Numbered from the stretch's first letter, positions 14,772 through 34,179 are shown. The stretch is 64,000 bases of DNA from a virus (IMGVR_UViG_3300047159_000056:143397-207396), one strand, 5' to 3'. Numbers and translations: made by a program. The notes: generated by a model from the sequence alone, not told the origin.

Positions 14772-15002
14772 TTATTCTTTCAAATCATTTATGTTAATTC
14801 CTCTATTCATCATGGAATTCATATTTCTGACCTCTTTACCAATATCCCCTATTCTAGATAATTCACGATGAGAAGTTTTCATTCTACCAAGACGATCGAG
14901 GTCTGTATCATACTTTCTTCCCTTAATAAATCCAAACTGTGAACCAGCATTAGTATTTAATATCTGATTACTAGAATATTGTTTATTTCTTAAGATAATC
15001 AT
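14772..15002 (-). CDS. Leader-family small protein (MIILRNKQYS)
   Basis: ORF with leader motif. Confidence 0.65.
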   Translation of the reverse strand: MIILRNKQYSSNQILNTNAGSQFGFIKGRKYDTDLDRLGRMKTSHRELSRIGDIGKEVRNMNSMMNRGININDLKE

Positions 15003-15006
15003 TATT

Positions 15007-15651
15007 TTAATCCCCCAATAAATATATCTTATAGTTAAGCCCGAACGGTAATATATTAAGAGCAGCTATTGCATCTTGTATACTGTCAAACTCTAGCACT
15101 AATGATCTGCCAGGCTTATCATATTTTATTGCATCTCCTAAGAGTTTATGCACTGTCTTAGTTACATTGAAGTTTGGAGAGAATCTTGCGGAAGTAAATG
15201 GTGCCGGACCTTTCTTTTTATCATCAAAGCACTTAGTAGTAGGTCCATTAATAGACTCAGTTTCACTAAATTTCTTTCCACCCTTTCCTTGATTCTGGTT
15301 GTTATTATTATCCCCACCTGGAGCTTTCTTTGCAAACAATCCATTATCAATATTTAAAGATAGGTTACCAAGTCTTTCGTCATAATATTTACCAGGTAGT
15401 CTTACTTCATCTGGCATCTTAGCTCTTGCCCCAATCTTTAGATACATTCTGTATTTATCTTTTCCAAAGAAGGAAGTGCTAATTACAAAACGTTCTATTA
15501 CTATATTATTTCCTCTGAGTATAGGAATAAGAGAAGATTTATCTATAATAGGAAATCTCTGTTTATCATAATTTGTCAGCTTCATAAGTTCCACATATAG
15601 TGATCTCATAGCATCATACTCAGAAAATGTCTTTTCTCTAAATTTTATCAT
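15007..15651 (-). CDS. Leader-family protein (MIKFREKTFS)
   Basis: ORF with leader motif and internal KKFS. Confidence 0.65.
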   Translation of the reverse strand: MIKFREKTFSEYDAMRSLYVELMKLTNYDKQRFPIIDKSSLIPILRGNNIVIERFVISTSFFGKDKYRMYLKIGARAKMPDEVRLPGKYYDERLGNLSLNIDNGLFAKKAPGGDNNNNQNQGKGGKKFSETESINGPTTKCFDDKKKGPAPFTSARFSPNFNVTKTVHKLLGDAIKYDKPGRSLVLEFDSIQDAIAALNILPFGLNYKIYLLGD

Positions 15652-17154: not shown

Positions 17155-17529
17155 TTATTTAGTAAATCTATTAAGCATTCTCTTTCCAACTTTTTCTGCT
17201 CTAGAAGCTAATTGATTAGAGGTCAATGCAGTCTTTCCCTTAGATACTAAATAATTATTCAAATTATTAGCTGAAGCTTTTCCATATTTTTCCGCTCCGG
17301 ATAATACCATATTTCCAGATTTTAGTGCTCTACCAGCTCCCATCCAGGCTTTGTTTGCTCCCATGGCTGCCTTTGCTCCAAACACTCCGTTTCTAGCTCC
17401 AGCTACTGCTAATGCTGCTGTACCCAGGGCTCCTGCTCCAATAGCTAATTTCTTACCAAGCCCCATACCTTGTTTAGGCTGTTGATCGTCATCACTATAG
17501 GTTTTTCTTTTTAAAATATATGTTGCCAT
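17155..17529 (-). CDS. Leader-family protein (MATYILKRKTYS)
   Basis: Leader followed by the LAIGAGALGTAALAVAG helix. Confidence 0.65.
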   Translation of the reverse strand: MATYILKRKTYSDDDQQPKQGMGLGKKLAIGAGALGTAALAVAGARNGVFGAKAAMGANKAWMGAGRALKSGNMVLSGAEKYGKASANNLNNYLVSKGKTALTSNQLASRAEKVGKRMLNRFTK

Positions 17530-17545
17530 AATTTAGTATATCCTT

Positions 17546-17782
17546 TTAATATCCTTCACCATTTTCCTTACCCATATCACCGGTAGCTACATCCTTAAGA
17601 GTACTACCAGCCTTTACAGCTCCAATACCTAATCCAGCTGCAGCGGTTGCACCAGTTGCTCCTGCTATAAGCTTTGTTTTGGATATTCCAGCTAGAGCAT
17701 TTTCTCCTTTAGCTGCACTAGAGCCCATTTTAAACAAGCTAGCAAGTCCAAATGTTTTTCTCTTTAATGTATATGTTGCCAT
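17546..17782 (-). CDS. Leader-family protein (MATYTLKRKTFG)
   Basis: Leader followed by an Ala/Gly helix. Confidence 0.65.
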   Translation of the reverse strand: MATYTLKRKTFGLASLFKMGSSAAKGENALAGISKTKLIAGATGATAAAGLGIGAVKAGSTLKDVATGDMGKENGEGY

Positions 17783-17919: not shown

Positions 17920-19374
17920 TTAGAGTCCAATCTTGAAGGTAACTTTCTGTACCAACTCAGGAGCCATAGTGCGAACACCTTCCTGATAGTAGATACCAGA
18001 AGCCATCTGTGTAGGATTGCTGTAGTTACCAATAGTTGGAGTATCTGTCAAAGGCATATAAATACCACGTGCAAGAGGAGCCATCTGACCGTCAGCAGTC
18101 TTGTGAATAGCATAGAATGTACCTTCACCGGTTGCTTCAGTGATATCAGTTGAACGGAGAACTGGAACACCATCATACCAACCTAAGAGGTCATTGATGT
18201 ATGTCATCTTCGTATTCTTCTCAAATTTACCAATCATTCCACCTTTCTGGAACTGGTTAGAAGCTGCGTTACCTGCAACATAAGCTGTAGTATTGACACC
18301 CTTAACAGCCTTTGTAGCAAGAGCTGTTTCAACATCAATCAGGTATGCATCAAACATATCAATTCTAGAACGATAATCCATGAACTGTTTTGTTAGACCA
18401 GTACTAGCTGTGCTAAGGTCAAGGTCAGTCATAGTAGTTCCATGAGCCTCTGTATAACCATTCTCCAAAGTAGTAACAAGACGATAGTTAATCATCTTTG
18501 TATACAACTCACGTAGTTTGGTGAACAGGAATGTAGCCATATCAGAACCAGTGGCTTTCTTCATTGCACCGAGAGCAGCGATATTGTACTCAGCTACCAA
18601 CATATCGGGTACTGTAGACAAACCAATCTGTTGCATCTTAGCAATAAATCTCTTATCATTTGCATGTGCATTTGCAGATCCAGTTGTACAGCTAGGTGTA
18701 CCTGTAACATCCTCTTTACCTACAATAGTAATAGACTCTTTCGTAGCATCACCAGTCAAAGCTGTGCTAAGAGAGAATGTAATCTTACCATTCAGGTAGT
18801 TTACTTCAGAAGATTTCAGTTTACCAGCAACAGCCATGAATGTTCCCTGACCGTTATCAATCAGTTCATAAGATTCGGTTGCATTCTTAATCTTAATACG
18901 CAATGAACCTGGGATCAATTTACGACCAACTAGTGAGTTATAATCAGCTGTAGCAGCCGGAGTGATTTCAAGTTCAAATCCACCCATAGAGTTAATATCC
19001 TGGTAGCTATCTGCACCAAGGTTAGGAATAACTGGACGTAGATCCGTTACACCAAGAACGTCAAACCAATAGAACAAACCATTAGGCTGATCAAAGTCAC
19101 GTTCAATTGACATATAACCTGCAAAAGAGCTTACATAAGAAGCAACTGATGCATTAAAATATTGAGTACTCAAAAGCGGAGTCTCTGCATAACCAGAGAA
19201 CAATTTCTGCTGTAGATTGCTCTGTGTACCAAATACGTCTCTCATATCTTCATTACGTGAGAACATTTTGACATATTCGTTCGCACGCATCTTAGCATCT
19301 GTATCAGACACTGAACTTCCACGCAAAGCCTGTTGCATTGCGGTATTCTGTGAAATAAGCTGTGAATAATCCAT
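17920..19374 (-). CDS. Major capsid protein (HK97 fold, T4 gp23-like)
   Basis: 484 aa directly after scaffold and protease; QPNGLFYWF and LARGIYMPL blocks resemble gp23; biased codon usage; followed by a terminator-like hairpin. Confidence 0.8.
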   Translation of the reverse strand: MDYSQLISQNTAMQQALRGSSVSDTDAKMRANEYVKMFSRNEDMRDVFGTQSNLQQKLFSGYAETPLLSTQYFNASVASYVSSFAGYMSIERDFDQPNGLFYWFDVLGVTDLRPVIPNLGADSYQDINSMGGFELEITPAATADYNSLVGRKLIPGSLRIKIKNATESYELIDNGQGTFMAVAGKLKSSEVNYLNGKITFSLSTALTGDATKESITIVGKEDVTGTPSCTTGSANAHANDKRFIAKMQQIGLSTVPDMLVAEYNIAALGAMKKATGSDMATFLFTKLRELYTKMINYRLVTTLENGYTEAHGTTMTDLDLSTASTGLTKQFMDYRSRIDMFDAYLIDVETALATKAVKGVNTTAYVAGNAASNQFQKGGMIGKFEKNTKMTYINDLLGWYDGVPVLRSTDITEATGEGTFYAIHKTADGQMAPLARGIYMPLTDTPTIGNYSNPTQMASGIYYQEGVRTMAPELVQKVTFKIGL

Positions 19375-19397
19375 TTTATCTTATTATTTATTTTTTA

Positions 19398-21944
19398 TTA
19401 TTTTAACTCTCCAAGCCAAGATACTAGGGTATCTGCGGAGTTTTCGTTGTCGCTGAATGTTCTTTCTTCAGCTTCATAATCATAATCAGAGAATGTTGCT
19501 TCCTGAAGGTCGGGTTCTGCACTAGCTGCTGGAGCTGCTTTAGCCTCTGCAATAGTTGCTGCTGCATCTGCTGCGGCTGCTTGGATACCCTGGATAGCTG
19601 CTTCTGCTTTATCCTCTGCCTCTTCAACAGTAGGAGCTACAGGAACTGCTGCTACCTGACCAGTTGTAGGATCTACCTGAACTGGAACTTCATTACCTTG
19701 CTCGTTCTGAACTGTAGGAACTGCTGCCTGTGCTGGAACCTGTCCGGGAGCTGCTGGAGCAACCTGATTCATTGCAATGTCTGCAAAGAATTTATCAAGT
19801 ACTCTATCATCTGAATAAGAGAATTTCTTATCCTCATCCTTTTCATTATCCTCTACAGCAAGACCATCTGTTAGTTCGTCTGCCTCATCCTCATCAATCT
19901 TATCAACTGACATCTCATCTTCGTTGTCAATTGTAGCCTTAGTAAATTCACCATTAGCCTTATCTTCAATAACGGCAGTCTTAGCATCAACAGGAGTAAT
20001 AACTTCACTCTCGTTTTCAATCTGATCACCTGAAGCAATAGCATCTTCAATTTCATCCTGATCGGCCTCTTCACTAAATAGTCTCAGCATATAGTCTGTA
20101 AACTCTTCATTCTCTGAGAAGAACTTAGTTTCTGCTTCATCAGTATAAATTTCTGAACACTCTTTCTCTTCAGCATCTTCTTCACCCTCTGCAGGTGCTT
20201 CATCTAGATCTTCTTCGTTATCTTCAACGGCTAGATCTTCAGTCAGATTATCTGCTTCATCTTCGCTAATTGGATGTAGATTAATAGTATCTTCATCTGT
20301 TATAGTAGCTTTCGTAAATTCACCATTAGCCTTATCCTCTACCACTGCAGTCTTAGAATCAACTGGAGTAATAACCTCTGTGTCATTCTCTACTTGATCA
20401 CCTTCTTCAATAGCAGATTCAATTTCATTCTGGTCAGACACGTCACTATAAACTCTAACCATGTAGTCAGTGAATTCCTCGTTTTCAGAGAAGAATCTTG
20501 TTTCTGAATCATCCGTATAAATTTCAGAACATTCTTTCTCTTCCTCGTCTCCCTCATCTTCTACTTCGTCTTCGTCATCTTCTGACTCATCTTCATCTTT
20601 ACCATCACCAGCTGTAGCACCAGGAGCATCAGCAGCCATTGTCTTCTTAATATTACTTTCATCCTCAATAACACTCAAGTCTTCTGTAATATCTTTAGCT
20701 TCCTCTGGACTGATCTTCTCAAGTTTTACATCCTCGTTGGTAAGAGTAGCTTTTGTAGTCTCACCAGTATTTTTATCTTCAATTACTGCATTTTGTGCAT
20801 CAACCGGAGTGATAACCTCATCGTCTGTTTCAATTTGGTCACCATTATCGATTGCATCTGAGATAGTGTCTTGCATTTCAGATACACCATCTACTGTTTC
20901 TGAGAACATTCTGCACATATAGTCAGTGTTATCATCTACGTAGGATGTAAAGAATACATCATGATCTGAATATTCTGCCTGTACCGGCTCTTCAACATCA
21001 CCTTCTTTTACGCCCAGACCATTTAGAAGATTAATGGCATAATCACGAGCCTCTTCCTGATTATCAAAAATCTGTACGGCATCTACACCATCTTCTGTTA
21101 ACTGCTGAGCAAGTTCGTCTGCTGATTCCTGTGAATATTCTGGAGCATCTACAATAACATGATCTATTGTGTCAACACCTACTACGAATAGAGGCATAAA
21201 CTGTTCGTCATTGCTAAATGTCTTAGAATCTAGTTCTGTAACATTCATATTTTCGTTATCTAATTCAACCTTAGCCTGGTCACCAGTTGTCTCGTCTGTT
21301 ACAACTACTGCATTGTCCTCGTCACCGACCTTTTCAATTTTTAGATCACCAACTTTTGCTGTATCCTCACTCTCAATAACTTCTGAGAAGATTCTTTCAC
21401 AAAATTCCTGATCTGAGAAAATTCTTTGTACTACAGTATTGTCTGTACTAACTGAGAATTCCTTTTCTCCCTCGTCACCACATGTACAAGGCTCATTTCC
21501 ACACTCTGGACATGGCTCTTCCATTTCAGCAACTTTACGTTCGTGGCCAGCACTTGGATTTAGTCCACCATCTTCTAGGTTTGGAGAGATAACACTCCCA
21601 TTACTAAAATGATTCTTAACGTTTTCATCACTTGCACCTACCTGATTACCAACTTTAATACTACCATCTACTACTGACGGATGGAGAAATTTTTCCAACT
21701 GACCATCCGGAACAGCGATAAGATCATAAGTATCAGCTGCATCAGAAGCCGCTTGTGCTATCGTTACTTCACCATTTTCTTTATCTGTAATAGCAACATT
21801 GCCATCACCTACATGTTTATAATTAACTTCATCAGTATCAACTTCACCATTATCCTGTGCGGACTTGATGTCATTGTCTACCTGATCTGCCAGTTCCTCA
21901 TCATTGTTTGAGAACATGACTTGCATGAATCTAGTAGTTTTCAC
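19398..21944 (-). CDS. Acidic scaffolding/prohead core protein with internal repeats
   Basis: 848 aa, very D/E-rich; triplicated GDQ.E...EVITPVD...A..EDK..GE.TKAT domain; many xFS motifs; lies just upstream of the capsid gene. Confidence 0.7.
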   Translation of the reverse strand: MKTTRFMQVMFSNNDEELADQVDNDIKSAQDNGEVDTDEVNYKHVGDGNVAITDKENGEVTIAQAASDAADTYDLIAVPDGQLEKFLHPSVVDGSIKVGNQVGASDENVKNHFSNGSVISPNLEDGGLNPSAGHERKVAEMEEPCPECGNEPCTCGDEGEKEFSVSTDNTVVQRIFSDQEFCERIFSEVIESEDTAKVGDLKIEKVGDEDNAVVVTDETTGDQAKVELDNENMNVTELDSKTFSNDEQFMPLFVVGVDTIDHVIVDAPEYSQESADELAQQLTEDGVDAVQIFDNQEEARDYAINLLNGLGVKEGDVEEPVQAEYSDHDVFFTSYVDDNTDYMCRMFSETVDGVSEMQDTISDAIDNGDQIETDDEVITPVDAQNAVIEDKNTGETTKATLTNEDVKLEKISPEEAKDITEDLSVIEDESNIKKTMAADAPGATAGDGKDEDESEDDEDEVEDEGDEEEKECSEIYTDDSETRFFSENEEFTDYMVRVYSDVSDQNEIESAIEEGDQVENDTEVITPVDSKTAVVEDKANGEFTKATITDEDTINLHPISEDEADNLTEDLAVEDNEEDLDEAPAEGEEDAEEKECSEIYTDEAETKFFSENEEFTDYMLRLFSEEADQDEIEDAIASGDQIENESEVITPVDAKTAVIEDKANGEFTKATIDNEDEMSVDKIDEDEADELTDGLAVEDNEKDEDKKFSYSDDRVLDKFFADIAMNQVAPAAPGQVPAQAAVPTVQNEQGNEVPVQVDPTTGQVAAVPVAPTVEEAEDKAEAAIQGIQAAAADAAATIAEAKAAPAASAEPDLQEATFSDYDYEAEERTFSDNENSADTLVSWLGELK

Positions 21945-21954
21945 GTTTGTTATT

Positions 21955-22830
21955 TTATTTATTTATAGTTATTTGATTTCCATCAATCCTAATTGCACCA
22001 TGAGATGTTAAGAGGTCTATAATATTATCAGGAGCATCATCATAACGCTCTCTCAAGATATCCATAAACTGCTTAATTCCAAAACTTGTGTTTCCATACT
22101 CTACCTTTAAGTCAGGTATAATATTAGAATCTGTTAACCAAGCCTCTTCACTATTAGGACCTTCTTCTGCTCCCTCACTAAAATTACTTTCAAAAGGAGG
22201 CATTAAACCGTGAGCCTTTCTAATAATAACAATTCCTTTATCAGGTAGAGCTCCATGATTTTCTAAGTCAGATAATACTTCTTCCTTATCCTTGATTCCT
22301 TCAGTTATTTCAGGATCTAGGTCAAGCTCTTTAGTTACTGTTATAATCAACTTACTAAATAATTTTTCTGTCTGATAAGCGGTGTCAGAGATTTTAACTC
22401 CAGAATCAGTATTAAGAGCAATACCATTTCCAAGCATCTCTTCAGAATTAGAAAACTCTTTCTGAAAAACGTCAGAAGATATAGTCTTCCCACTATACTC
22501 TTTCAACTTTTTTTCATATGGGTTATCCTTATCAAACAAAGATAACTTACTAACCTTTACTGTTTCTACTGTTTGAGCAGGAGATTCAGGAACAGTCATT
22601 AAGTTAAATCTTTTTCCACCACAATGAGGACATACTAAGTGAGATACATTTGCAGACGTTTCCATAACATATCCACAATCTGAACACTTAACTTTTCTTA
22701 GGGTTACTCCTCCCTCATTGTATTCTTCATTTTCGTGAGAGAATAACTTAATCCTTCTTGTTGAAGAAGTATTGGAGAATATCTTTCTTCTATAGTCATT
22801 CCCAAATAATGATATTCTACTTCTTAACAT
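21955..22830 (-). CDS. Zn-ribbon prohead-associated protein
   Basis: CSDC...CPHC; motifs KIFS, KLFS, KEYS, KEFS. Confidence 0.6.
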   Translation of the reverse strand: MLRSRISLFGNDYRRKIFSNTSSTRRIKLFSHENEEYNEGGVTLRKVKCSDCGYVMETSANVSHLVCPHCGGKRFNLMTVPESPAQTVETVKVSKLSLFDKDNPYEKKLKEYSGKTISSDVFQKEFSNSEEMLGNGIALNTDSGVKISDTAYQTEKLFSKLIITVTKELDLDPEITEGIKDKEEVLSDLENHGALPDKGIVIIRKAHGLMPPFESNFSEGAEEGPNSEEAWLTDSNIIPDLKVEYGNTSFGIKQFMDILRERYDDAPDNIIDLLTSHGAIRIDGNQITINK

Positions 22831-24058
22831 TCTTATCCCCTCCTTCTGTTGACTCCTCTAAGGCGGCCTGTTCTACAATACCCTCTGGTAATGGACTAGC
22901 ACCAAATACTTCATCAGTCATAGCTTTTATAAATTCTGTATAAGCTTCCTGAATCTTCTTGTACCTCATAGGAGATATTTTGCCTGTCTTAGATATTTCT
23001 TGCATAGCATATCTATAAGGCATCTGTAAATTTTGTGCAGCAACTCTTACATTCTTTCCCAGAGAAGATGCACCAATTAAGGTATTTATTTGTTTACCAG
23101 AAATAATATCTGCATTAATACCTTTAATTATATCCAAAACATCTGTGGCAAAAAGTGACTTCATCGTTTTTAGAGTTTCAGGATCAGGCTTCCCAGCTCT
23201 CATTGCCTGCTTGTAATCTATAAACAATCTACGAAATCTCATTCTAGGACTCATCTTAGAAATTCTAACTCTTTCCTTTATTGCAGATGCGGAAAATTGT
23301 TTTGTCTTTAGGCTTTCTCCAACCTCTTCTATTGTACTATTTAGACTGAACTCTTTAGCTTTTAGTACAGTAAAGTGATTGTCTATCTTAGAGGTCTTAG
23401 CTATATTATCAGCACCCAAGACACTAAGGTCTGAGAATGATTTTACTTTAAGACCATCATACTTAAGATCATTACTAGTATCAGAAAAACCTCTTTCTTC
23501 ATCTATCGCTGCAATTACTTTTCCATTCTCAGTAACACTAACTACTTGAGCTTTCTTCCAAGAGGGATTCAGTGTGTAGTCGAAGGATTTTATATTAACT
23601 AGTTTCTTCAATACATCACCTGAGTTTGTACTATCCCAATAACCAAGAATTACAGCACTGGCACCTATAAGACACCCGTTCATGAGAAGACCTTTCAATC
23701 TTCTAATATTCTGTTTTGCATTTTCATCCAATGACTCTTCATCTAGGATTTTAGCATTCGCATATAACCAACCATCACCCTCAATTTCAAGAGAAGTTAT
23801 ATAGTGTGTTGGTGAAGCATCCATAATATCTAAGAGCATATCATCTTTTCCTATTGTATTCTTTACACCAGGATTCAATGACTTAGCACCAGTAGATATA
23901 TTTCTTGCTCTGTGCGTAAGAGTTCCTAACATCTTATGCGAAGCAATAGCATTCTTATATTCTGTGCTTTCTAGATATTGACGAACTACCTCTACTGGAA
24001 TGTGACTACCATCCGACGCAGGTTCATTAAATGAAAGGAGTTTAACTCGTACTTCCAT
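22817..24058 (-). CDS. Prohead maturation protease (T4 gp21-like)
   Basis: LGTLTH (His), IGASAVILG (Ser) and FDYTLNPSW (Asp) parallel the gp21 motifs; lies between portal and scaffold. Confidence 0.8.
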   Translation of the reverse strand: MEVRVKLLSFNEPASDGSHIPVEVVRQYLESTEYKNAIASHKMLGTLTHRARNISTGAKSLNPGVKNTIGKDDMLLDIMDASPTHYITSLEIEGDGWLYANAKILDEESLDENAKQNIRRLKGLLMNGCLIGASAVILGYWDSTNSGDVLKKLVNIKSFDYTLNPSWKKAQVVSVTENGKVIAAIDEERGFSDTSNDLKYDGLKVKSFSDLSVLGADNIAKTSKIDNHFTVLKAKEFSLNSTIEEVGESLKTKQFSASAIKERVRISKMSPRMRFRRLFIDYKQAMRAGKPDPETLKTMKSLFATDVLDIIKGINADIISGKQINTLIGASSLGKNVRVAAQNLQMPYRYAMQEISKTGKISPMRYKKIQEAYTEFIKAMTDEVFGASPLPEGIVEQAALEESTEGGDKNVKK

Positions 24059-24175: not shown

Positions 24176-24661
24176 TTATTCCTCACTAGTCTGTTCTGGT
24201 GCCTGATTATAGTGCTTCTTGATATATGCCTTCTTAGACATTTTTCCATCAGCAACCTTTTTTAGATCACCATCACTAGACTTATAATAATCATCTATAT
24301 CTTTCTCTACTTTTTTCTTAGCAAGATGTTCAGCTCCAATGCCAGCTAATGCTCCTATACCAGATCCAATTAATCTACCTTTTCTAGTATTAAAAGATTT
24401 CTTAGTTGCACTAGCTACAGTATGCCCTAGTAAGCCTCCCATGAGACCAGCCTTTGCATAAGCAGCACCAGGAATAGCGAATTTTTCATTTCTATCTTTT
24501 AGAGCTATTTTTCTTAGCATCTTTTTGTCAGCTCCAGTAAGCTCTTCCTCTTCATCATCCTTAGAAAACAAAGATTCATCAAGATACTCAGTTGTACTGA
24601 ATAATCTCTCTTCACCACTCTCATCTTGCAGTACAGAGAAAACTTTACGTCTTATATACAT
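24176..24661 (-). CDS. MYIRRK-subfamily protein
   Basis: MYIRRKVFSVLQDESGEERLFSTTE leader plus glycine zipper. Confidence 0.75.
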   Translation of the reverse strand: MYIRRKVFSVLQDESGEERLFSTTEYLDESLFSKDDEEEELTGADKKMLRKIALKDRNEKFAIPGAAYAKAGLMGGLLGHTVASATKKSFNTRKGRLIGSGIGALAGIGAEHLAKKKVEKDIDDYYKSSDGDLKKVADGKMSKKAYIKKHYNQAPEQTSEE

Positions 24662-24666
24662 AGGAT

Positions 24667-25170
24667 TTAATCTTTATTTTTATTCTTAATGTGGTCGTAA
24701 AGCTTATAACCACCATAAGCAGCACCTGTAGCAGCAAGAGCTCCACCAGTAATCTCAGCAGTTAATTTAGCATTTGGATGTTCCTGTGCATATTTAGCAA
24801 CAGCAGCTGCGGCCTTCTTAGCAGCATCAGCAGTAACCTTACCACCTGCAGCAGCTTTACCACCAACATATTTACCACCTGCAGCAGCTTTACCACCAAC
24901 ATATTTACCACCAGCAGCTACCTTACTTCCTACATACTTTGCACCAGAAGCTACAGCATTACCAACAAATTTTCCACCCTGAACAGCTTTGCCACCTACA
25001 TATTTACCTGCAGATACTACTTTATCAGCTGCACCTTTTGCTACTTCCTTTATACCAAACTCTCTCTCATCCAGATAAGAGTCTTCATACATAAATTCAG
25101 TTGTACTGAATAATCTCTCTTCACCACTCTCATCTTGCAGTACAGAGAAAACTTTACGTCTAATATACAT
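24667..25170 (-). CDS. MYIRRK-subfamily protein with 11-mer repeats
   Basis: Same leader; GGKYVGGKAAA repeats; C-terminal anchor. Confidence 0.75.
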   Translation of the reverse strand: MYIRRKVFSVLQDESGEERLFSTTEFMYEDSYLDEREFGIKEVAKGAADKVVSAGKYVGGKAVQGGKFVGNAVASGAKYVGSKVAAGGKYVGGKAAAGGKYVGGKAAAGGKVTADAAKKAAAAVAKYAQEHPNAKLTAEITGGALAATGAAYGGYKLYDHIKNKNKD

Positions 25171-25242: not shown

Positions 25243-25500
25243 TTATAGATATCTTTTTTCTTTATTTCTTAATCTTCTAAGCTTTTTTATTGGCCTAGTA
25301 AAACTGAGTACTCTATTTCTAATCTTAGAAGACATTTCACCAACTACAGGAGTATCACCAGCTAAGTTAACTACATGTTCTACACCATCTAGCCCTACAT
25401 CAATTCCGTTATCTATAGCTTTTCCAACTTGAGCAGAACTATATGAGGTTCCTAAAATTGGAATATAACCTGAGTATGTTTTGTCTCTAAGTATTATCAT
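25243..25500 (-). CDS. Leader-family small protein (MIILRDKTYS)
   Basis: ORF with leader motif. Confidence 0.65.
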   Translation of the reverse strand: MIILRDKTYSGYIPILGTSYSSAQVGKAIDNGIDVGLDGVEHVVNLAGDTPVVGEMSSKIRNRVLSFTRPIKKLRRLRNKEKRYL

Positions 25501-26679: not shown

Positions 26680-28374
26680 TTACATGTTTTGTTCTGGATT
26701 CTGCTCATCTAAGAAACTAGCATCTATTCCCTGTTGCTCTGCCTTAGTCTTTAACATAGCTGAAGACCACTTAACATAATTCTCAATAGTAGAATCAGTT
26801 ATAATAGACTCTGTATTTGGATCAATATCTTTAACCAAGTTTTGTATATATCCCAAGAAAGATTTAGTATCTATTAGGGGTGCAGCTTGATCTAAGGTAG
26901 CTAGTGAATTAGTAATAATACCAGTTATACCAGTAACCAAACCACTAATAGACTCACTCTGATTTATCTGATTATTATATTCTACAGACGTCTTCTCAGT
27001 TAAGTGAAGTTTTATTAGGCTGGAATCTATGTCCTTATTGTATAAGATATTGTAGATAGAACATACTAGGTTAGTCATGGAATCTTTTATACCATCCATG
27101 AAACCAGTAATCTTAGAATTAGCTCTTTCACTCTGCTGTAGAATAGCCCATTTAGAACCAGAAGTAGAATCTAAGATAGTACTAGGAATACCAAGAGGAC
27201 TAAGAACAGAACTTTTACAATTATCAAGATTCTGCATTAAGTCTAGTAGTTTATCAGATAACTTATCAAGAGGTAACATACTATTCTTATTGCCTAAGGT
27301 AGAGTTATAATCTGGTACAAACTTAGCTGATTGTGATAATGTATTTTCTATAAAACTAACTACATCAAACTGTGAAGTCAAAAAGCTAGCTAGTTCATTT
27401 GTATTATTCGCTAGCTTCGTAGTTCTAGCACATAAGTCATTAGCCGTTTCAAGAGGAGTAGACTTATCAAATTGTAACAAAAATATCTGAACACTGCTAA
27501 GATCCCTCAATGATATAAGAGAAATCAGAAGCTCCTTAATAACTAATTCTTTTACTTTTAGAATTAATGAGTAAAACAATGGCTCACCAGCACTAAAAGA
27601 CTCTTTCCTAATTACCTTACTTCTATTATTATCTTTGTCTGAATTCTTTCCAAAACTAGGCTTTAATATTTTCTTATTATTGTAATCTTCGTCTAAGTCA
27701 TTAATAAGTCTAAGATTAATGTTTCCTATATAGATTACTTCATTACTCGGTATCTCATATATTTTTCCATCTTCTCCCCTAGCTAAAAATAACTCTTCAT
27801 TTTCCCCAGTTTCACTTACACTTCTCTTTTTCTTAGATACAACAGTCACTGGATCATAAAGCTCTTCTATATTAAATACTAGGTGCCCTAAGTCATCCCT
27901 ACTGTGTCCAAGCATAGAAAAGTATTCTCCATAATATACATAATCTTTTGAATGATCTCGTATAAAATCAAAAATCTTTATTTGCTTTAGTAAGATATCA
28001 TTTATTCTCTCTGTCTCTGTTTCTTGCTTATTTCCTTCTTCATCTACTATTGTTATAACCTCTCCAGTATTTTGAACTAAGAAATTTATTATATAATCTG
28101 AGAAAAAGTTTGTTGCTAATTTGGATATATCTAATAATTGATAACCCCTTAATTCATCAACCCTCTGATAATACATTGATAATCTATTGGAAGGTGATGC
28201 ATTTCCTAAGAGTGGAGATTCTCGCATTCCTGAAAACATTCTATTAGCTGTTCCACCAATAGGGGAATAACCTCTGCCGCCGCCACCACTAAATACATTA
28301 GATCTTAGAGGAACCCTGGAACCGTATCCAATTCCTCCAAATACCTTCTGAAATAATCCTTCGTGCTTTTTCAT
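26680..28374 (-). CDS. Portal protein
   Basis: 564 aa; DYVYYGEYF and SPLGIPSTIL blocks are typical of T4 gp20-like portals; lies between terminase and protease. Confidence 0.75.
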   Translation of the reverse strand: MKKHEGLFQKVFGGIGYGSRVPLRSNVFSGGGGRGYSPIGGTANRMFSGMRESPLLGNASPSNRLSMYYQRVDELRGYQLLDISKLATNFFSDYIINFLVQNTGEVITIVDEEGNKQETETERINDILLKQIKIFDFIRDHSKDYVYYGEYFSMLGHSRDDLGHLVFNIEELYDPVTVVSKKKRSVSETGENEELFLARGEDGKIYEIPSNEVIYIGNINLRLINDLDEDYNNKKILKPSFGKNSDKDNNRSKVIRKESFSAGEPLFYSLILKVKELVIKELLISLISLRDLSSVQIFLLQFDKSTPLETANDLCARTTKLANNTNELASFLTSQFDVVSFIENTLSQSAKFVPDYNSTLGNKNSMLPLDKLSDKLLDLMQNLDNCKSSVLSPLGIPSTILDSTSGSKWAILQQSERANSKITGFMDGIKDSMTNLVCSIYNILYNKDIDSSLIKLHLTEKTSVEYNNQINQSESISGLVTGITGIITNSLATLDQAAPLIDTKSFLGYIQNLVKDIDPNTESIITDSTIENYVKWSSAMLKTKAEQQGIDASFLDEQNPEQNM

Positions 28375-28468: not shown

Positions 28469-29038
28469 TTATTTCTTTTTATTCCACTTCTTAGCAAATT
28501 CAGACTTTGTCATATTGCCATTAGCTACTTCTGTTAAATCAACATCTCTCTCGAATGCCTTTTCATTATTCTTCCAGAATTTCTTTCCTGTTGGATTTTT
28601 GGATTCTTTTATAGAGTGATTTCTAATAGCTTTACTAACTCTAGTACTTCCATATCCTAATCCAGCACCTACTCCAGCACCAGCAAGACCACCAATAGCG
28701 GCTCCTTTAGCTCCTCCTTTAACATAGCCTAAACCTGCTCCAGTAATAGAACCAAGAGCACCATTGACAATAGCCTCTCTTTTCCCGGCTTTTTTCCATG
28801 CCTCTGGATCATTTTTACCAAGTCCTACAACCAAATTTCTTTCTCCTTTTGTCATAAGATGCTTTCTATTCCATGCGGTGACTTTGTCTAGAAGCTTCAT
28901 CTTAGGCTCATCTTCTGGATCTGAATACATTAGCTCATCTAAGTATTGATCTTCATCTACAAATTCTGTGGTGCTAAATAGTCTTTCCTCTCCACTCTCA
29001 TCTTGTAGTGTAGAGAATACTTTTCTTCTTATATACAT
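28469..29038 (-). CDS. MYIRRK-subfamily glycine-zipper protein
   Basis: Leader plus GAKGAAIGGLAGAGVGAGLG. Confidence 0.75.
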   Translation of the reverse strand: MYIRRKVFSTLQDESGEERLFSTTEFVDEDQYLDELMYSDPEDEPKMKLLDKVTAWNRKHLMTKGERNLVVGLGKNDPEAWKKAGKREAIVNGALGSITGAGLGYVKGGAKGAAIGGLAGAGVGAGLGYGSTRVSKAIRNHSIKESKNPTGKKFWKNNEKAFERDVDLTEVANGNMTKSEFAKKWNKKK

Positions 29039-29067
29039 ATTCTTATTCTTTTTATAATTCTTTTAGT

Positions 29068-29116
29068 TCTCTCAGTCTCATCGAAGAGTAGATTCATTTT
29101 ACAAATCGCTGAGAGA
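29068..29116 (-). ncRNA. Three-way-junction RNA element, copy C
   Basis: UCUCUCAG-c-GAUUU...GAAUC-UA-CUC(UUCGAU)GAG-a-CUGAGAGA. Confidence 0.7.
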
Positions 29117-29127
29117 TAATAGTTAGA

Positions 29128-29673
29128 TTAGAAATTATAATTTCTCTTCATATATTCTTTCTTAGACATCTTGCCATCTGCTACCTTCATTAGGTCTACG
29201 TCATCCTGCAATTCCTGTCTATAATTATTTGTATATTTGTGTCTTAGGGCTTCCTTCTGATTTTTTGCCAACTTTCTTGAAGCAAGAGCACCAATACCTG
29301 CACCAACTCCAGTACCAGCAAGAGCACCAATAGCAGCTCCCTTAGCACCAGCCATAGATCCCATACCTGCTCCATAGAGCCCGCCAATTACACCACCTAC
29401 TTGGCCACCACGTTTGGTTGTATGTTTAATATACGGCTCCCAATCATTTTTCTCAATAGCATTCTCTGCTACTTCTCTTCCTTTTTTGGTTTTAAACCAC
29501 TTAAGATCTCTAAGTCTAGCTTTATCGGATTTTGTAAGTTCCTGATCTTCATCATCAGAGAAACAAATTTCGTCTAGATATTCGTCTTCATTCATAAATT
29601 CAGTTGTACTGAACAATCTTTCCTCACCATTTTCATCTTCAAATGTAGAGAATACTTTCCTTCTTATATACAT
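29128..29673 (-). CDS. MYIRRK-subfamily glycine-zipper protein
   Basis: Leader plus GAKGAAIGALAGTGVGAGIG; C-terminal KVADGKMSK shared with 24176. Confidence 0.75.
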   Translation of the reverse strand: MYIRRKVFSTFEDENGEERLFSTTEFMNEDEYLDEICFSDDEDQELTKSDKARLRDLKWFKTKKGREVAENAIEKNDWEPYIKHTTKRGGQVGGVIGGLYGAGMGSMAGAKGAAIGALAGTGVGAGIGALASRKLAKNQKEALRHKYTNNYRQELQDDVDLMKVADGKMSKKEYMKRNYNF

Positions 29674-32967: not shown

Positions 32968-33453
32968 TTAAATTCCGATTATTTCTCTAAGAGGACGTCC
33001 TTTTCCTCCATTAATAGATTGCATTCTTGAATTAAATTTTGCAAGGTCTACAGCATTCTTAACGGCTTTCTTAGTAACTGGCTGACCAGATTCTCTAAGG
33101 CCTACTCTAGCAAATCTTCCTAAAGCTTTTTGTACACTTGGATTAGTGGTGTTATATATTCCTTTTCCGGCTCTTCCAGATCTTCCAGCTATACCAATGA
33201 CTTTATTTATTACTTCCTCCTTATTTGCATTCTCTATTCCTCTTCTGCTGATCTTTTTACCAATATCTCTTATTCTAGAAAGTGCTTTGGCCTGACTTCT
33301 TATAGATGCATACTCTTTCTGTTCAGGTTCTTCGTCAGAATACATCATTTCATCCAGATATTGATCTTCGTCTACAAATTCTGTAGAACTAAATAGTCTT
33401 TCCTCACCATTCTCATCTTCAAATGTCGAGTATAGTTTACGTCTTATATACAT
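32968..33453 (-). CDS. MYIRRK-subfamily basic protein (true start 33453)
   Basis: MYIRRKLYSTFEDENGEERLFSSTE; internal QKEYA. Confidence 0.75.
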   Translation of the reverse strand: MYIRRKLYSTFEDENGEERLFSSTEFVDEDQYLDEMMYSDEEPEQKEYASIRSQAKALSRIRDIGKKISRRGIENANKEEVINKVIGIAGRSGRAGKGIYNTTNPSVQKALGRFARVGLRESGQPVTKKAVKNAVDLAKFNSRMQSINGGKGRPLREIIGI

Positions 33454-33454
33454 G

Positions 33455-34179
33455 TTATTTCTTTTTATTATGTTTATATTGGTAATATTTATAACCACCA
33501 TATCCAATACCACTAGCTAATGCCAATCCTCCAGCAACTTTGCCGACTGTCTTAAGATTTTTGATTCTTCTTAATTTGGCATTTTTTAGAATCTCAGTCT
33601 TCTTTGCTGCGGCTTTAGCTTCTGCTCTAGCAATATTTTCAGACTTAGCTCTAGCCTCTGCTCTAGCTTTTTCTCTCAACTCTTCTTTTATTTTTGCCTT
33701 AGCATTTTCAGCATTAATTCGCTTCTTGATATCATCCTCTACTTGTTTTTCTATGGCGGATTTATTACGTTTTAATTTATTATCAAAAAGTTGACTTTGA
33801 TGTTCTGGACTAAGTCTATGGATTCTAGAGAACTTATCATTAAATAAACTCTTAGCTCCCCTTCTTTGAGCGGCTCTTCCTTCTTTAAGTAGTGATTCCT
33901 GCTTATCGGCCAGTTTAGATATATCTTTCATACCTTCTACTTTGGGACTCCAAGATCCTCCTTTAACTAAAGGTGTGGTAGAAGCAACCTTATATTTATC
34001 ATATACCTTCTTATAGCTTTTATCTATAGGGTTAGTAAGAAAATTATCAGTTGAAGCACTTTCTAATCCTATCTTCATATCAGACAATGCTCTTCTAGCC
34101 TTTTGTGCTTTGGAATTAAAGGTTCTTTCCTCTATCTCCCCCCCCCCCCTGAGAGGATATTGTTTCTTAATATTATCAT
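33455..34179 (-). CDS. Leader-family tail-anchored protein interrupted by a G12 tract (34138-34149); in frame at G10 or G13
   Basis: ATG at 34179 overlaps the upstream TGA; G10 gives MIILRNNILSGGGEIEERTFNSKAQKARRALSDM... Confidence 0.7.

Follow-up and report, generated by a model that had tools for sequence, protein, structure and literature searches.

Among prohead proteases with the gp21/assemblin fold, the enzymes of T4, phiKZ and SPN3US are known to cleave after Glu and those of herpesviruses after Ala. The herpesvirus protease consensus is V/L/I-x-A|S (| denotes the cut), and the T4 site, L/I-x-E|, follows a specific-free-specific pattern. SPN3US sites read A-x-E|S, with Ser preferred at P1′ (PMC10052503), and T4 gp21, SPN3US gp245 and the herpesvirus proteases also process themselves (PMC9026906, PMC10052503). 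Here we describe a 64,000-nucleotide stretch of viral DNA, hereafter the window (IMGVR_UViG_3300047159_000056), which covers bases 143397-207396 of a 207-kb IMG/VR record estimated to be 56% complete, with ~33% G+C. Within it, a short motif, [KR]x[FY]S, recurs in the products of a group of minus-strand genes that includes a predicted protease of this fold. We consider it likely that an uncultured jumbo phage has its head-maturation module in the region 17920-24058 and that the motif is the recognition site of the protease encoded there. As far as can be judged from sequence, the phage most likely matures its head by a T4-type system whose specificity is new: P3 basic, P1 aromatic and P1′ small.

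We assign the window to an uncultured jumbo phage because an identical capsid protein is also encoded on a 340-kb contig and relatives reach up to ~430 kb. All coordinates below are positions in the window unless a relative is named, and all features of the window described here lie on the minus strand.

Recurrence and conservation of the motif in head proteins

The motif is concentrated in four proteins: a protease candidate of 413 amino acids (aa; 22817-24058), a zinc-ribbon head protein of 291 aa (21955-22830), an acidic repeat protein of 848 aa that is a candidate scaffold or core protein (19398-21944), and a capsid candidate of 484 aa (17920-19374). Together, these 2036 residues contain 22 occurrences of [KR]x[FY]S, against 0.96 expected from within-protein shuffles (n = 5000), none of which reached 22. 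By protein, the counts are 11 against 0.15 expected in the scaffold candidate, five against 0.24 in the zinc-ribbon protein, four against 0.31 in the protease and two against 0.29 in the capsid candidate. A preliminary description of this DNA, made from the sequence alone, had listed motifs in these same four proteins and had named enrichment over shuffled and over non-structural proteins as a check. The listed motifs are all present, all on the minus strand, and the enrichment is borne out: the other 240 open reading frames (ORFs) carry the motif internally at chance level (1.15 per 1000 aa versus ~1.0 expected), and their slight surplus is due to motifs at the extreme N-terminus.

This signal also emerges without prior choice of a pattern. 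When 48,000 gapped residue triplets were scanned without bias, K.FS ranked first (13 occurrences versus 0.36 expected) and R.FS second (seven versus 0.16), and scrambled motifs (S[FY].[KR], [KR].S[FY], [DE].[FY]S and others) occurred zero to two times across the four proteins. Codons of both the TCN and the AGY type specify the motif Ser, and the first position switches between Lys and Arg, indicating that selection acts on the protein rather than on the DNA. The codon mix rules out a DNA-level signal and, along with the shuffles, the scrambled-motif controls and the conservation in relatives described below, an artefact of composition or repeats. Some scaffold sites do lie within three internal repeats of ~125 aa and so are not independent events.

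We compared the neighbourhoods of six relatives, with proteases that share 49-57% identity with that of the window. Each encodes two motifs in the capsid protein, four to five in the protease, five to six at aligned places in the zinc-ribbon protein and 11-18 in the scaffold, where ~0.2-0.4 would be expected in each. The three defining columns of the motif are 0.83-0.90 pairwise identical, compared with 0.42-0.48 for other columns (0.83 versus 0.48 in the scaffold), and the middle residue falls below these key positions, being free in the protease linker (0.20) and intermediate in the zinc-ribbon protein and scaffold (0.52-0.61). The motifs of these relatives are conserved islands within variable sequence.

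The acidic 848-aa protein, encoded between the protease and capsid genes, has an isoelectric point of 4.05 and is 28% Asp plus Glu. Its motifs begin at residues 161, 174, 184, 241, 345, 483, 497, 607, 621, 706 and 828, with degenerate versions at the N-terminus (VMFS) and at residue 816 (ATFS), and seven of its 11 Arg residues occupy the first motif position. Its position, extreme acidity and repeats make it a candidate scaffold or core protein. Several of its motifs form part of more extended conserved blocks (YMxRLFSE, AETKFFSENEE) and of the internal repeats. Just ahead of the first motif, at residues 144-154 (21483-21515), lies a Cys cluster, CPECGNEPCTC, which is found in the window and in two relatives (L002 and L007) and is absent or reduced in the others.

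In the zinc-ribbon protein, the motifs begin at residues 16, 28, 110, 124 and 156. The CxxC...CPxCG pattern of this protein is invariant in seven orthologues, and its matches to Pfam zinc-ribbon families are weak and below threshold. It also contains extra degenerate sites that have no basic residue at P3 (SLFD/SLFS and NFSE/HFSE; 22500-22690), and its relatives carry variable insertions that bring further QKEFS or QKSFS motifs. Scans of nine head-region proteins against Pfam and PHROGs yielded no usable family.

The protease, its linker and its family

An AlphaFold2 (AF2) model of the 413-aa protein, built with an alignment of 23 homologues, falls into three parts: a confident region at residues 1-187, a disordered region at residues 188-258 and a helical region at residues 259-405. 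The first of these is the putative catalytic domain (23498-24058), delimited by the model, its fold matches and the invariant residues H49, S134 and D160; its predicted local distance difference test (pLDDT) score is 77-93 outside one loop. The linker that follows (23285-23497) scores below 50, and the remainder, a C-terminal domain spanning residues 259-413 (22820-23284), is a confidently predicted helical bundle. The model of residues 1-188 best matches T4 gp21 (5jbl; Z 12.1, root-mean-square deviation 2.8 over 131 residues; Foldseek probability 1.00, E 3.5e-4), followed by the herpesvirus proteases of varicella-zoster virus (1vzv, Z 10.4) and human cytomegalovirus (8j3s, Z 8.5). The unrelated matches that remain after those of the assemblin fold are generic helical bundles that align to the C-terminal domain. 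These comparisons of models indicate a serine protease of the T4 gp21/herpesvirus assemblin fold, a membership that holds at the level of fold: the protein has no match in Pfam or PHROGs at E <= 0.01, no sequence match in the PDB by single sequence or profile, and no tblastn match among 50,697 phage records.

In herpesviruses, the third residue of the assemblin-fold triad is His. Here, H49, S134 and D160 are invariant in the 23 homologues and are probably the catalytic triad, as they occur in the same order as H77/S153/D178 of SPN3US gp245 and with a similar Ser-Asp spacing (26 residues versus 25). Those SPN3US residues have been aligned to the gp21 triad (PMC5694885).

All four motifs of the protease, R189GFS, K206SFS, K235EFS and K253QFS, fall within the disordered linker, directly after the catalytic domain and ahead of the helical domain, and are candidate self-release sites. 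K206, F208, S209, K235, F237 and K253 are invariant in the 23 homologues, and the sequence between the motifs varies in both content and length. The helical domain behind them is probably the part that binds the core or scaffold. A complex prediction for the catalytic domain with capsid residues 28-72 gave a median score of 0.29 against a mark of 0.32 and carries no weight either way.

The public gene call for this protein, P0002 (371 aa), starts ~42 residues late; the 413-aa reading is backed by homologues in which M1, A14, D16 and S18 are invariant. Near this N-terminus, many family members, including the relatives L003, L005 and L006, carry K6-L-F-S9, where the window has KLLS (24032-24043). 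T4 gp21 becomes active by removing nine residues from its own N-terminus (PMC9958956), and by analogy K6-L-F-S9 may be an activation site. Residues 6-9 are, however, modelled as a confident beta-strand.

The motif travels with the protease well beyond the close relatives. A profile of the catalytic domain retrieved only 120 representatives among 1.8 billion proteins. In the 45 distant representatives of long form, we counted 161 motifs where 18.9 are expected; 135 of these fall between residues 150 and 300, directly behind the catalytic domain, a stretch that holds at least one motif in 44 of the 45 proteins. Another ~40 representatives are stand-alone catalytic domains of ~166 aa that end exactly where the first linker motif would begin. 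Next to one such short-form protease (L009, 4209-5271), the following gene opens with ...KVKVFS and a nearby 976-aa protein contains 12 motifs; next to another (L010, 65-1180), the neighbouring products start with MIQEKKLFS (then ...RLYS...REFS) and MTNEKILFS. In this arrangement, the protease-linker-helical domain protein seems to be split.

This distribution bears on which enzyme would act at the motif. The short N-terminal leaders of Staphylococcus phage 80alpha, which end in an aromatic residue, are removed by a host enzyme (PMC5744158), and the motif described here could be cut by an enzyme of the host, or by another protease of the phage, in the manner of host Prp with 80alpha (Phe|Ala). 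We regard this as extremely unlikely, since the motif follows the phage protease family across very different phages and always flanks that family's own catalytic domain.

Boundary in the capsid candidate, portal candidate and small-protein leaders

The capsid candidate places its two motifs, K36MFS and K57LFS, in an N-terminal segment that differs sharply in conservation from what follows. Up to the second site, just before which indels occur, 20% of columns are invariant, compared with 58% in the rest of the protein, and from Q56 (QKxFS-GYAETPLL) onward the sequence is near-invariant in 20 homologues. We used this boundary to delimit a candidate propeptide of residues 1-59 (19198-19374) and a candidate mature major capsid protein that would begin at S60 (SGYAETPLL...; 17920-19197). 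For comparison, the propeptide of T4 gp23 is 65 residues long (PMC9958956). In one relative (L007), the first site is shifted four residues upstream (KQYS) and the aligned position has no Ser, suggesting that what is kept is a site and not an element of the fold.

The identity of this 484-aa protein as a capsid protein is weakly supported by modelling and by partial similarity. Its last 89 residues share 39% identity with a protein annotated as capsid in Escherichia phage vB_EcoM_IME392, a weak and partial match (E 2e-12 pairwise, 8e-6 against the database); in that phage, a match to a head maturation protease family is given by the gene upstream of the capsid gene. Modelled with AF2, the candidate scores poorly (mean pLDDT 48). 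On this poor model, a confident insertion domain matches the capsid proteins of phages P1 (Z 9.7) and S6 (Z 7.4), and the C-terminal part matches an HK97-fold encapsulin, lambda and other capsid chains (Z 5-6). A PDB sequence search with the capsid candidate, by single sequence and by profile, returned nothing. Of the gene identities that the preliminary description had assumed, that of the protease thus stands, as a gp21/assemblin fold, and that of the capsid is upheld weakly.

Gene order is consistent with these assignments across the relatives. The protease gene is situated in a head module between the genes of a portal candidate and the capsid candidate, and the order portal candidate, protease, zinc-ribbon protein, scaffold and capsid candidate is the same in the window and in six of six relatives. 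The portal candidate (564 aa, 26680-28374), which has no family match, is named from its size and position; several small genes follow it before the protease. Its Gly-rich N-terminus (28225-28374) bears K10VFG, R34GYS and R45MFS, with K-x-F-[GS] at residues 10-13 in seven of seven orthologues and RGY[ST] in five of seven. Between the portal and protease genes, some relatives carry genes of mobile-element type (L005, 7419-9059; L006, 7563-8618; L003, 3170-3841), the inserted types being a Cas12f1-like TNB domain protein (TnpB-like), a GIY-YIG endonuclease and a PDDEXK_5 nuclease.

The surplus of N-terminal motifs outside the four proteins traces to a set of small genes. A motif falls within the first 15 residues in 32 of the 244 ORFs, and ~28 of these form a single minus-strand block in the virion region; the three N-terminal motif ORFs outside the block are unlike the others. 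In the window, ~22 small genes (5090-34469) encode products that open with a leader of 5-12 residues ending in [KR]x[FY][SGAT], examples being 14772-15002, 15007-15651, 17155-17529, 17546-17782, 24176-24661, 24667-25170 and 25243-25500. Immediately upstream of the window there are six further leader genes, together with one weaker N-terminal hit. The leaders take the forms MIILRxKxYS, MIKFRxKxFS, MATYxLKRKT[FY][SG] and MYIRRKVFS...ERLFS, with a few looser variants. They are shared by otherwise unrelated small proteins encoded near the head genes, and they end in the same motif as the sites of the capsid, the scaffold and the protease linker. In a distant locus whose protease is barely detectable (L011, 3390-6561; E 3e-6), seven of nine small downstream genes begin with MK[IV]FS, MRVFS, MKVYS or MNKLFS, which suggests that the leader can shrink to 4-5 residues, with little beyond the motif itself.

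Four paralogous small proteins (24176-25170 and 28469-29673) open with MYIRRKVFS, nine further residues and ERLFS, placing two motifs 13 residues apart. A fifth paralogue (32968-33513) has KLYS and RLFS at the same spacing, behind a start that is probably mis-called. The bodies of these paralogues are rich in Gly and Ala, with a weak glycine-zipper match for one of them. The double motif could represent a two-step leader.

Several points weigh against reading the motif as the cut site of a gp21-like enzyme. The argument for cleavage is built on enrichment, conservation and position, that is, on sequence, and the conservation of those scaffold motifs that sit in blocks and repeats could be partly structural. 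In the capsid candidate, the motif count on its own is marginal, as 169 of 5000 shuffles reach two, and the low-scoring model supports a capsid fold weakly. The protease is assigned without a sequence-profile link to any protease family in Pfam, PHROGs or the PDB, and its probable triad is proposed from invariance and from likeness to SPN3US gp245 in order and spacing. Moreover, the same conservation and enrichment would be expected of a motif that served for docking and stayed uncut.

Such a docking tag would bind a pocket on the shell, core or protease, load proteins into the prohead and stay on, as encapsulin cargo-loading peptides do. Enrichment, conservation and co-distribution reflect selection on the motif and fit uncut tags equally well, and in T4 the two functions are separable, as a tag with Asp at residue 10 blocks processing yet allows targeting (PMC9026906). 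What separates the alternatives is where the motifs lie and what they accompany. They fall where prohead proteases are known to cut, at the end of the variable capsid N-terminus and after the catalytic domain, and they run along the whole of a highly acidic core protein that has to be cleared from the head, where 11-18 copies per scaffold are better explained by degradation than by docking. They also travel with a protease family that has invariant candidate catalytic residues. On these grounds, we judge an uncut docking tag very improbable and favor a site that is cut.

Site register, proposed processing and known systems

If the motif is cut, the bond can be placed in two registers. We think it reasonably probable, by analogy, that cleavage falls at Phe|Ser, because the free residue of the motif is then P2, as in the T4, SPN3US and herpesvirus enzymes. 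Cutting one residue later ([KR]-x-[FY]-S|) would make the aromatic residue P2 and the basic residue P4, and would start the mature capsid protein at G61. The fourth position is compatible with this, as only small residues occupy it (S at all 22 internal sites; S, G, A or T in the leaders). Herpesvirus assemblin has a small S1 pocket and cleaves at Ala|Ser. The later cut would likewise fit a small S1 pocket, and herpesvirus proteases are among the fold matches (Z 8.5-10.4). However, the nearest fold match is gp21 and not the herpesvirus enzymes, the free residue would become P3 rather than P2, and SPN3US prefers Ser at P1′ and not at P1 (PMC10052503). We therefore hold the later register to be quite unlikely and retain Phe|Ser.

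In the scheme that we propose, [KR]-x-[FY]-[S, less often G/A/T] would be read as P3-P2-P1|P1′, with cleavage following the aromatic residue. Once the prohead has assembled, the enzyme within it would use the four linker sites to release itself from its C-terminal domain, break the acidic core protein down to fragments of 10-163 residues and also cut the zinc-ribbon protein. It would remove ~59 residues from the capsid protein, leaving SGYAETPLL as the new N-terminus, and would probably trim the N-terminus of the portal. It would also strip leaders of 4-12 residues from ~30 small head proteins, on which these leaders would act like the capsid-targeting sequence of T4. The proposal in the preliminary description that these motifs are the expected cut sites of the prohead protease is supported by conservation of the motifs as islands, their co-occurrence with the protease family, the boundary at S60 and the small-protein leaders; cleavage, the exact bond cut and the packaging of small proteins are inferred. 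The contrast that it drew with the Glu specificity of T4/phiKZ-type enzymes is a fair one (PMC10052503).

A bolder version, which we find rather doubtful, is that the four-residue core is the whole address, with the protease (or a core protein) as receptor for any cargo displaying it and cutting as the step that releases the cargo. Were this true, MK[IV]FS as found in L011 would be the shortest known capsid-loading tag, a portable signal of 4-5 residues, and a clade of Bacteroidota-type jumbo phages would pack dozens of proteins by means of it.

Our literature search found no paper that describes a KxFS/RxFS motif or a specificity of a prohead protease for Phe or other aromatic residues; the papers on Jug-phage (PMC12880540) and bS21-phage (PMC9723584) mention prohead proteases and no cleavage motif. 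We view the system as a variant of T4-type maturation and targeting, not as a new kind of system. If the reading is correct, a branch with basic P3 and aromatic P1 would widen the known specificity range of the gp21/assemblin fold. A simple sequence rule would then read out the processed, and probably packaged, head proteome (capsid, portal, core and ~30 small proteins) for a clade of uncultured 340-430-kb phages whose head genes have no family annotation. The rule predicts that the mature capsid protein starts at S60, and phage engineering could make use of the short leader as a tag for loading capsids.

The closest comparison is with T4 (gp21, the gp22/gp67/gp68 core and gp23), whose protease appears to have the same fold as the one described here. 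As here, T4 has an acidic core protein with many sites, as well as leaders of ~10 residues on unrelated small proteins that end in the protease motif, with its specific residues two apart (PMC9026906, PMC9958956). In the 10-residue targeting sequence of T4, the processing residues are 8 and 10 (PMC9026906), and in MIILRxKxFS the corresponding pair is K7 and F9. The systems differ in the motif itself, Leu/Ile-x-Glu in T4 against basic-x-aromatic followed by Ser here, and in the number of leader-bearing genes, a handful in T4 against ~30 here. There is no detectable sequence similarity between gp21 and the protease candidate, which, unlike gp21, has a 155-residue helical C-terminal domain behind a linker with four sites.

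The jumbo-phage enzymes phiKZ gp175 and SPN3US gp245 are likewise gp21-like and process the capsid, the portal, themselves and many head proteins (PMC10052503, PMC5694885). The SPN3US motif is alike in its P3-x-P1 form and in preferring Ser at P1′ (PMC10052503). In both phages, however, cleavage follows Glu (A-x-E, or S/A/G-x-E), whereas the key residue here is Phe or Tyr, and their propeptides are often longer than 100 residues, compared with leaders of 4-12 residues here.

In herpesvirus UL26 and phage P2 gpO, an assemblin-fold protease lies at the N-terminus and an assembly domain at the C-terminus, with release sites between them. This arrangement of N-terminal protease, linker sites and C-terminal domain resembles our model of the 413-aa protein. 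The herpesvirus site also continues with Ser, as here, but has Ala at P1, and we found no sequence similarity between the protease candidate and either herpesvirus assemblin or P2 gpO.

Staphylococcus phage 80alpha offers a parallel for the leaders: its leaders of 13-14 residues are cut by Prp after Phe and before a small residue, and they form a tag carried by non-homologous proteins (PMC5744158). Prp, however, is a host cysteine protease whose use is shared with ribosomal protein L27, whereas the candidate enzyme here is phage-encoded and of predicted assemblin fold, and, unlike the 80alpha tag, the motif of this phage also occurs many times in the interior of its head proteins.

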